24,000 nt of DNA from Vogesella urethralis (lineage in GTDB: Bacteria > Pseudomonadota > Gammaproteobacteria > Burkholderiales > Chromobacteriaceae), in NCBI RefSeq assembly GCF_007644045.2, contig NZ_VMDW02000090.1, positions 7,762-31,761 on the forward strand, given 5' to 3'. The translations under genes and the position numbers were made by a program. This document shows positions 12,541 through 14,070 of the stretch, piece after piece. The notes beneath the pieces are model-generated. The model was not told the origin of the DNA, ran no database searches, and was given only the letters and a program-made list of their open reading frames with translations. Each line of letters begins with the position of its first letter. The first letter of the stretch is position 1.

Positions 12541-13045
12541 GTTATAAGAAAATTATAAATGGTGTTGAGTATTCCATTTTTTCTTCTGTCCGTTTTTTTA
12601 ATAACTTCATCCTGATGGTTGATTGGGGTGGGAGTCACGGATTTCATGATCTGGATACCTGCAATCATAATGTATTCATGATTAATCACTCTGGGGAGTT
12701 TGTTTGGCAAGTTCGCCGTGATGATAGCGTCCGTGGGGAAGGTTGGTGGGATGTATTGCATGCCCATGCTCGAGAAATTGGCGAAGATGGTGCTCGTAGG
12801 CCATTCACCTACTTTGTCATTAATTATCCCGATGGTAGTAATAATATAAACCCAGATACAGGTAGTCCGCCAGATCATGCAATTTGGACGCCGGGTGCCA
12901 CAATTTGGTTAATGGGTTCGGCTTATCAGAAATATATACTCGACCCTGAGACAGGTATTGCCACAAACGTTACACAAGGGAATCCACGGCCTTGGTGATC
13001 TAAAGCGCTTAAGTTGGTAAGTGCTTGTTGGCAAGAGCTCAAGGG
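12341..13045 (+). repeat. Direct repeat R2, copy a (toxin 3' end + cdiI + ~45 bp downstream)
   Basis: It is homologous to 18187-18880. The match is near-identical at 12341-12480 and 12776-12998, strongly diverged at ~12481-12700 and intermediate at ~12700-12775. Confidence 0.85.
12537..12998 (+). CDS. cdiI: CdiI immunity protein for the resident CdiA-CT (no family recognised)
   Basis: ATG 12537 overlaps the cdiA TGA (12538-12540) as ATGA. The ORF track opens earlier, at 12510. The ORF is 153 aa and very AT-rich at its 5' end, about 25-45% G+C in the lines I counted. Its position immediately after a polymorphic toxin is the basis for the call. Confidence 0.75.
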   Translation: MSYKKIINGVEYSIFSSVRFFNNFILMVDWGGSHGFHDLDTCNHNVFMINHSGEFVWQVRRDDSVRGEGWWDVLHAHAREIGEDGARRPFTYFVINYPDGSNNINPDTGSPPDHAIWTPGATIWLMGSAYQKYILDPETGIATNVTQGNPRPW

Positions 13046-13586
13046 ACAAACGGATGCAGTGCGAAAACAGTTGCCAGACATGGTGGACGCCAAAACCGGC
13101 AAACCGATCGGCAATGCGGCGGTCGCAGAGATCAACGTCTACGGTGAAGGCAGCACACGGGTTCAGGCACATTCTCGCGTGGGCAATGAGCCAGCATCAA
13201 TGAGAGACGGGTTTGTGAGCCTGCCACCGCCTGAGCAGCGCATCCTCAAACCATTGCCTGATCCCAGAGGGGTGCCGCGCGAAGTCGATACGGAGTACAA
13301 AATCCTGGAGAACTTCGCGCAGCAGCACCAAGCCAACCCGCAGGTGCAGGGCAGCATCAACTTGTTCACGGAGAGGCCCCCGTGCAGGAGTTGCACGGAT
13401 GTGATCAAAGAGCAGTTTGCGAAGATGTACCCCAACATGGAAGTTCGGCTCTACCACAACAACGGAGAGATCACGGTCTACAAAGGTTCCGAGATTGGGG
13501 TAGTCAAAGTCCCGAACTCGAATGAAAAGCGATGGCCTGCATCTCCGGATTTGTCGAAGCCATTGGTTCAAAAGAAGGGAGGCTGA
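13014..13586 (+). CDS. Orphan 'headless' toxin fragment, nucleic-acid deaminase-like (DxE...PCxxC)
   Basis: REVDTEYKILENFA (D92-T-E94, nt 13287-13295) and INLFTERPPCRSCTDVI (C124/C127, nt 13383-13394) have deaminase-like spacing of 28 residues. There is no CdiA homology, signal or obvious ATG/RBS at the 5' end; the ORF opens at TTG 13014 and the first ATG is at 13080. Confidence 0.5.
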   Translation: MVSACWQELKGQTDAVRKQLPDMVDAKTGKPIGNAAVAEINVYGEGSTRVQAHSRVGNEPASMRDGFVSLPPPEQRILKPLPDPRGVPREVDTEYKILENFAQQHQANPQVQGSINLFTERPPCRSCTDVIKEQFAKMYPNMEVRLYHNNGEITVYKGSEIGVVKVPNSNEKRWPASPDLSKPLVQKKGG

Positions 13587-13587
13587 G

Positions 13588-14070
13588 ATGCTGTTTCGGA
13601 ACGCGACAATTGAGGAGCTGACATCAGAGAAGGTGTACGAATTTGCTGAGTGCAAGCCGGTGTACCTTGCTCTACTTGATTACTACCATCGTTTGCTCGA
13701 CAGTCCATCAGCCAAGGAAGATTGGGATCAATCTGATGATCATGGACGGAACTATGAGCTCTGGTGGGTCATGAATGAGGCGTGGCAGGAGTACGGGACA
13801 TTGAAGCCCGATCTACCCTATCGCTGGCTCGCCATCTCCAAACGCGTCCTGTACTGGGATCACATCCCGGTCAACTTTTACCCAGTGGCTTTGGCGATCC
13901 TGGAGAAGTTTGACCTGGAGCGCTACCAGGCGGCGTACCGCCTGCCCACCGAAGAATACGAAGCCATGAAGCGTGATTTGCCCGAGGTGCTAGAGGGCTT
14001 GCGGCAGTATCCGCTGGAGAAACTTGCCCCACCGATGGACGAAGACAATTGGGGATTCACGGACCAGTGA
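13588..14070 (+). CDS. Putative immunity protein for the deaminase-like toxin fragment
   Basis: ATG 13588 lies 1 nt after the toxin TGA (13584-13586). It is preceded by a strong SD, AAGGGAGG (13575-13582). The product is 160 aa, acidic and Trp/Tyr-rich, with no family recognised. Confidence 0.65.
   Translation: MLFRNATIEELTSEKVYEFAECKPVYLALLDYYHRLLDSPSAKEDWDQSDDHGRNYELWWVMNEAWQEYGTLKPDLPYRWLAISKRVLYWDHIPVNFYPVALAILEKFDLERYQAAYRLPTEEYEAMKRDLPEVLEGLRQYPLEKLAPPMDEDNWGFTDQ

Follow-up and report, generated by a model that had tools for sequence, protein, structure and literature searches.

A probable displaced orphan CdiA deaminase toxin and its immunity gene in a contact-dependent inhibition locus of Vogesella urethralis

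The window analysed here, a 24,000-nucleotide stretch of Vogesella urethralis DNA (contig NZ_VMDW02000090.1, positions 7,762 to 31,761 of the forward strand), is a cdiB-cdiA-cdiI locus of contact-dependent inhibition (CDI) together with an array of orphan toxin/immunity modules. We describe one of these modules, which comprises a toxin gene and the immunity gene that follows it. The toxin open reading frame (ORF) occupies 13014-13586 and encodes 190 amino acids from a TTG start, the residues being numbered from this codon. It is headless, in that it holds a complete deaminase domain and none of the delivery part that precedes the domain in its relatives. The module is composed of the following elements.

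12999..13028, + strand: junction, about 30 nucleotides, the 3′ flank of the cdiI cassette, which gives the toxin frame its opening codons, TTG 13014 among them
13029..13586, + strand: headless, complete PF14424 deaminase toxin domain, from W6 to the stop (Pfam, conservation, model and Foldseek)
13575..13582, + strand: Shine-Dalgarno sequence AAGGGAGG of the immunity gene, within the last toxin codons (read from the sequence)
13588..14070, + strand: cognate immunity gene, 160 amino acids, an all-alpha protein of an uncatalogued family (homologous clusters; follows PF14424 toxins)

The toxin matches the Pfam family PF14424 (Toxin-deaminase, the BURPS668_1122 family) at 77.9 bits, well over the cut-off of 29.6 (E = 1.1e-21), in an alignment that spans positions 11-146 of the 146-position profile, and a PF14424 scan of the whole genome returns this same toxin as its single match. 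Weaker, sub-threshold echoes come from APOBEC1, NAD1, SNAD4 and XOO_2897, and the SCP1.201 and DYW models of Pfam give no match at E ≤ 1. An earlier reading of the window from its letters (the sequence-only reading) had proposed a polymorphic toxin with a deaminase fold, of the DddA or SsdA type. The fold is borne out by the PF14424 match and by the structural comparison below; the type is not, as DddA belongs to SCP1.201 (BaDTF1) and SsdA is DYW-like (BaDTF2), with DddB in Pput_2613 (BaDTF3) (de Moraes 2021). Iyer et al. 2011 (PMC3239186) make SCP1.201 the sister clade of BURPS668_1122, and DxE is found in some SCP1.201 members too. Judged by its sequence, the toxin is a deaminase of the PF14424/BURPS668_1122 clade, an already catalogued family.

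The active-site motifs are found in the ORF as the sequence-only reading had them, R89-x-x-D92-x-E94-x-K96 and P-C124-x-x-C127, which in full are R89-E-V-D92-T-E94-Y-K96 and C124-R-S-C127. The codons are GAT at 13287-13289 for D92, GAG at 13293-13295 for E94, TGC at 13383-13385 for C124 and TGC at 13392-13394 for C127. A gap of 28 residues given for these motifs holds as the spacing from E94 to P123, but not as the literal gap between ENFA and INLF, which is 12 residues. Asp does stand at the position of the usual His/Cys zinc ligand. The RxxDxExK motif, at the start of helix 2, is the defining signature of the BURPS668_1122 clade (Iyer et al. 2011, Table 1, PMC3239186), and Asp92 is therefore the normal state of the family; the suggestion of a variant, unusual metal site falls with it, the published DxE hallmark being conserved across the family.

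A search of 1.84 billion representative proteins yields 740 toxin homologues at E ≤ 0.001, with homology beginning at W6. Residue conservation was counted in the best 150 of the 740, mutually no more than 50% identical. In this set the four predicted site residues are conserved (D92 in 145 of 146, E94 in 147 of 147, C124 and C127 each in 150 of 150), as are the other key residues R89 (144 of 146), K96 (141 of 147) and S126 (148 of 150). About 20 positions are near-invariant in the family, and the window toxin retains them all. The position two past the second Cys is Asp in the window, not Ser, and among the 150 homologues it is Asn in 61, Asp in 26, Gly in 26 and Ser in 10. Because this position varies while S126 of the CxSC is so consistently kept, the ‘xS’ printed past CxxC may not be a strict feature of the clade.

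An AlphaFold model of the toxin, built from 41 sequences, has a mean pLDDT of 89.3 and a pTM of 0.85. It consists of helix 2-18, strands 35-42 and 46-53, a long insert (residues 54-92), helix 93-104, strand 113-119, helix 125-138 and strands 142-148, 152-157 and 160-165, with the C-terminal hairpin at 152-165. In the model, D92 lies one residue ahead of helix 93-104 and E94 in the first turn of that helix; the CxxC is at the start of helix 125-138, which begins just past C124 and includes C127. The modelled topology appears to match that described for the BURPS668_1122 clade. Deaminases head the Foldseek list against the Protein Data Bank (PDB), beginning with APOBEC3H, APOBEC3G and APOBEC3C, and DddB, DddA, AID, mouse CDA and a DYW domain are among the top 22 matches (probabilities of up to 1.00); we regard the assignment of a deaminase fold as sound. 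Neither of the outcomes that the sequence-only reading had named as refuting it, the lack of a deaminase-fold hit and the want of conservation at the four residues, was observed. A phmmer search of PDB sequences with the single toxin (E ≤ 10) gives noise only, DddA and SsdA not being found, and a search with the 41-sequence family profile (E ≤ 1) gives marginal APOBEC3 matches at E = 0.015 and no DddA, SsdA or DddB. By analogy with the deaminase superfamily, Asp92, Cys124 and Cys127 would hold the catalytic metal and Glu94 would serve as the proton shuttle. The toxin would act on cytosines of nucleic acid, this substrate and the metal ligation by Asp both being inferred.

The toxin frame is open from 12999, the first base past the TGA of the preceding cdiI. 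A second cdiI copy is present at about 18374-18832 (direct repeats D3 and D4), and 12999-13028 is alignable with the stretch after it, near 18833; for this reason the junction is assigned to the cdiI cassette and not to the deaminase. TTG 13014 reads TCG in locus L090, the sole diverged relative with the same junction, where ATG 13080 (M22) is conserved. No Shine-Dalgarno sequence can be read ahead of either codon, and the AlphaFold model indicates that a product from M22 would be without helix 1 of the fold. A scan of 12300-14300 for promoters and terminators gave nothing above shuffled expectation. The sequence-only reading had noted the want of a convincing start, and these observations agree with it; it had also seen no CdiA homology, and Pfam indeed gives no Fil_haemagg or PT-VENN match in the toxin ORF. 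The toxin ORF likewise has no similarity to the tail of the resident CdiA.

Full-length homologues show how the domain is natively delivered, the headed relatives being CdiA proteins with a (V/I)ENN motif. They read ‘ARVENN’ or ‘ARIENN’, then about 12 residues, then sequence that aligns with ‘WQELKGQTD...’ of the window, which puts about 16 residues between the motif and the start of the window copy. Such relatives include P0030, P0033 (with Fil_haemagg_2 and the deaminase on one protein), P0035, P0040 and the Hydrogenophaga aromaticivorans CdiA of loci L097 and L098. The window toxin has lost the VENN-type motif, everything upstream of it including the entry domain, and a convincing start. 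An earlier union of the deaminase with the present entry domain finds no support, the VDVNN-VENN region of the resident CdiA and the N-terminal part of P0030 being similar only at the VENN motif.

The immunity family follows PF14424 toxins in at least eight other loci (L097, L098, L005, L006, L090, L093, L094 and L003) and always accompanies the deaminase subgroup of the window in the loci examined. These and related loci form a series.

L097 and L098 (Hydrogenophaga), L005 (Iodobacter) and L006 (Acinetobacter): full CdiA-deaminase and immunity
Window and L090: headless whole domain with an identical junction behind the same cdiI; toxins 75% identical
L093: toxin cut at about 64, behind a 211-residue ORF; immunity full-length
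L094: toxin cut at about 76, behind an Imm8 gene; immunity full-length
L003 (Chitinivorax): toxin cut at about 82, among transposases and insertion sequence (IS) elements; immunity full-length
L007:5971-7035 (Iodobacter violaceini): deaminase with an in-frame stop inside the C-terminal hairpin; two downstream immunity copies intact
L096 (Azonexus): immunity alone, toxin gone; immunity full-length

In L097 and L098, TPS, Fil_haemagg and DUF637 are followed by ARVENN, the deaminase and then an immunity gene of the same family, and in L005 two immunity paralogues stand behind the CdiA-deaminase. Throughout the series the immunity gene has its full length, L091 being left aside as a contig of 1.5x coverage where an apparent frameshift splits that gene. 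The toxin has been truncated repeatedly and independently beside an intact immunity gene, in keeping with the suspicion of the sequence-only reading that immunity is the maintained partner. The module occurs once in its own genome and the toxin was not found in 16 other searched genomes of the genus, which is a sporadic distribution.

Verrucomicrobiota and Kiritimatiellia of the gut and rumen hold PF14424 deaminases in very large numbers. The loci L031 and L039 and some 30 further PF14424 loci are from Verrucomicrobiota, Kiritimatiellia and Lentisphaerae; L031 and L039 hold tandem PF14424 paralogues of about 200 residues with signal-peptide-like N-termini and no obvious immunity gene between them, a context quite different from that of the CdiA toxins.

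The toxin ends with TGA at 13584-13586 and, after a single base, the immunity ORF begins with ATG 13588, confirming the tight spacing behind AAGGGAGG that had been reported; the same ribosome-binding sequence is present in L090. M(L)FPN opens every member of the immunity family, in support of a start at 13588. The family comprises about 70 homologous clusters, well conserved and all annotated as hypothetical, from Iodobacter, Chitinivorax, Azonexus, Hydrogenophaga, Acinetobacter and many metagenomes. The 160-residue protein of the window has no match in Pfam (E ≤ 1), NCBIfam or PDB sequences, and none of 27 immunity homologues compared with Pfam matched a family, including Imm2, Imm3 and SUKH, which are on record as partners of the clade. 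Its model is all-alpha (pLDDT 86.7) and has no meaningful match by fold in the PDB (best probability 0.30); as modelled, the protein may represent a new all-alpha fold. Kinship with the immunity ORFs of other PF14424 loci was rejected at an hhalign probability of 2%. Most of the immunity ORFs beside other PF14424 toxins are also unrecognised by Pfam, and an uncatalogued immunity family is therefore not exceptional here.

Around the module, the locus contains the following genes.

1694..3457, + strand: cdiB, two-partner secretion transporter of the ShlB/FhaC type (Pfam ShlB at 1.1e-100, POTRA_2, POTRA_3)
3472..12540, + strand: resident cdiA, 3022 amino acids (ORF and translation)
12537..12998, + strand: resident cdiI, 153 amino acids from ATG 12537, with a 90% identical 153-residue ORF at the same position in L090
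14149..15810, + strand: next orphan cdiA C-terminal toxin region (cdiA-CT), with a Fil_haemagg_2 match and repeat families D1 and D2

The resident CdiA has a pretoxin boundary, VDVNNRQLHP, and then a second motif, AKVENN, ahead of its own C-terminal toxin. Two nested boundary motifs are also seen more widely, in the CdiAs of P0033 and L097 as in the window at 11446-11960: a pretoxin ‘(V)NNRQLH(P)’ and, 160-310 residues later and directly ahead of the toxin domain, a literal (V/I)ENN. The second boundary of the resident CdiA reads AKVENNAGAKLNNQFYRDG and looks like a doubled junction. Neither the C-terminal toxin of the resident CdiA (11947-12540; E ≤ 0.01) nor the resident CdiI (E ≤ 1) has a Pfam match. 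The cdiA repeats have a G+C content of about 67%, which drops to 45-55% over 11600-14000, a region that includes the 3′ part of cdiA (45-54%).

The orphan at 14149-15810 keeps about 1 kb of cdiA homology, 10467-11477 being repeated at 14157-15167 with 94-95% identity. In all, a 3′ segment of cdiA of up to about 1 kb is present in three direct copies (10467-11477, 14157-15167 and 17513-18189; 84-95% identical), ready substrates for the deletion or swapping of whole toxin/immunity modules. The resident toxin tail and cdiI are themselves doubled (12331-12991 and 18177-18825, 92-93% identical), and after each copy stands a common flank of about 30 nucleotides and then a different ORF, the headless deaminase past the first and 18855-19331, ahead of PoNi-type immunity genes, past the second. 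ORF 18855-19331 has no Pfam match. A PoNi-type immunity protein is split between the overlapping ORFs 19328-19723 and 19666-20208, the one carrying PoNi_N and the other PoNi_C, which suggests a frameshift. The module order in L090 differs from that of the window, and its array is shorter.

We consider it highly probable that the pair is a displaced orphan CdiA-CT deaminase/immunity module, an undelivered toxin beside a protective immunity gene. In its native form, the deaminase domain would end a CdiA filament, behind an entry domain and the (V/I)ENN motif, and would be delivered into neighbouring cells. An incoming toxin/cdiI cassette would have replaced everything up to a point about 16 residues past the motif, and so left the deaminase without its secretion, entry and cleavage part, a conserved start or a ribosome-binding site. 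With these gone, the toxin is probably neither exported nor efficiently translated. The 160-residue gene, with its own strong ribosome-binding site, would be the cognate immunity gene, kept as protection, and it probably protects against neighbours armed with the matching deaminase.

Several observations weigh against this interpretation. The toxin frame is fully intact, with every family-conserved position kept, which might leave room for some continuing toxin function. Low-level translation by re-initiation is conceivable, because L090 has kept ATG 13080 and in both loci the frame is open right from the cdiI stop. Between these two headless copies, the ratio of nonsynonymous to synonymous substitution rates (dN/dS) is 0.20 for the toxin and 0.13 for its core. 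The similarity that Foldseek finds to solved deaminases is weak (best E = 0.009; TM 0.3-0.44), and the PDB sequence and profile searches found no solved structure of any PF14424 member on which metal ligation by Asp could be seen.

The low dN/dS was rejected as evidence of toxin function, the value of 0.20 being matched by 0.14-0.16 for the window toxin against clearly dead, half-length remnants. These values reflect, for the most part, the divergence of alleles before truncation; recombination probably contributes as well, because the alleles of the subgroup look mosaic. More informative are the most closely related loci, L092 and L093, between which the immunity gene has a dN/dS of 0.09, against 0.43 in what remains of the toxin. 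Conserved positions have been lost elsewhere (F135I in L093, P140R in L094, G113D in L003 and R89H in L090), and the window toxin, which has no such losses, has therefore either been displaced recently or is still under some constraint.

The complete catalytic domain, with all its conserved residues, would also suit a silent reserve cassette, a spare warhead that could be recombined onto cdiA, as has been shown for other orphan CdiA-CT and Rhs modules. The abundant long direct repeats of the locus allow module switching, and the mosaic-looking alleles suggest that recombination has taken place in the subgroup. However, upstream of this toxin there is no cdiA sequence, neither VENN nor pretoxin, unlike at the orphan at 14149, and with no shared upstream sequence an in-frame fusion by homologous recombination is impossible. 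Recombination between 10467-11477 and 14157-15167 would delete the module, not arm it, and the relatives show progressive erosion of the toxin rather than its maintenance. We regard a reserve function as unlikely.

Less likely still is that the pair is expressed and acts inside its producer, the headless toxin being translated at a low level by re-initiation or from ATG 13080; it would serve there either for addiction, stabilising the orphan array, or as a conditional mutator that the immunity protein restrains. The position of the open frame right after the cdiI TGA, the conserved ATG, the coupling of the two genes one nucleotide apart and the intact ORF, with its dN/dS of 0.20 against the other headless copy, are all consistent with such expression. 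Against them stand the lack of a Shine-Dalgarno sequence at either start, a TTG that is not conserved, an M22 product that would lack helix 1, the equally low dN/dS (0.14-0.16) against dead half-length remnants, and the failure of the 12300-14300 scan to find any promoter-like site.

Finally, a catalytically dead protein, a pseudo-enzyme or mere nucleic-acid binder in which Asp abolishes metal binding, would fit the rarity of Asp as a ligand at that position in characterised deaminases and the PDB searches, which gave no solved member of the DxE type, but it is scarcely credible when Asp is conserved clade-wide together with the catalytic Glu and both Cys, as in a conserved active site and not in decay, when PF14424 members are reported to deaminate cytosines of single-stranded DNA (ssDNA) in base-editor reporters (bioRxiv 10.1101/2023.05.21.541555), and when the clade is consistently paired with immunity genes.

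The displaced-module interpretation can be set beside known systems. Like the BURPS668_1122 clade at large, the window toxin combines the profile match with RxxDxExK in helix 2 and CxxC in helix 3, and its relatives carry the domain on filamentous-haemagglutinin/CdiA proteins with an immunity gene behind. It differs in that the window copy has lost the delivery part, that its subgroup has a tail of about 40 residues past the hairpin, and that its immunity protein matches none of the scanned Pfam families, Imm2, Imm3 and SUKH among them. DddA, SsdA and DddB are likewise interbacterial deaminase toxins of the same superfamily fold with paired immunity proteins, but they belong to other Pfam families, their fold similarity to the window toxin is weak (TM 0.30-0.32), and they are delivered by type VI secretion systems (T6SS) or Rhs proteins, not by CdiA. 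The characterised DddA, SsdA and DddB are described with the usual His/Cys-type zinc site.

Orphan cdiA-CT/cdiI modules were reportedly described by Poole et al. in 2011. As in these, a toxin fragment with neither start nor secretion part lies downstream of cdiBAI, with an undamaged immunity gene behind it; typical orphans, of which that at 14149 is an example, however keep cdiA homology through which they could be re-fused, whereas the window toxin, cut within its N-terminal linker, keeps none.

CdiA-borne PF14424 domains are on record from Pseudomonas aeruginosa LESB58 (PALES_28341; PMC4725963) and Yersinia intermedia ATCC 29909 (PMC9424206). The only report of activity that we found for the clade is a preprint in which PF14424 members deaminate cytidines of ssDNA in a base-editor reporter (10.1101/2023.05.21.541555). 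In a 2026 preprint, a P. aeruginosa CdiA-CT, not necessarily of this clade, is shown to be a double-stranded DNA cytidine deaminase, and orphan cdiI genes of P. aeruginosa PABL015 are protective, among them one that matches this toxin and protects another strain (bioRxiv 10.64898/2026.09.30.755834), which is a precedent for the protective role proposed here.

Earlier work has already described the toxin family with its DxE site, its presence on CdiA proteins and the phenomenon of orphan modules, and the finding is real but ordinary. The 160-residue immunity family, absent from Pfam and NCBIfam and with no structural match in the PDB, has modest value, as has the toxin domain. Small, modelled with confidence and paired with a cognate inhibitor that looks soluble, this domain would be a reasonable candidate for work on the Asp-Cys-Cys site and on the substrate of the clade, both of which bear on the search for new base-editing enzymes. 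The series from headed to headless toxin, to half a toxin, to immunity alone illustrates how immunity outlives the weapon.

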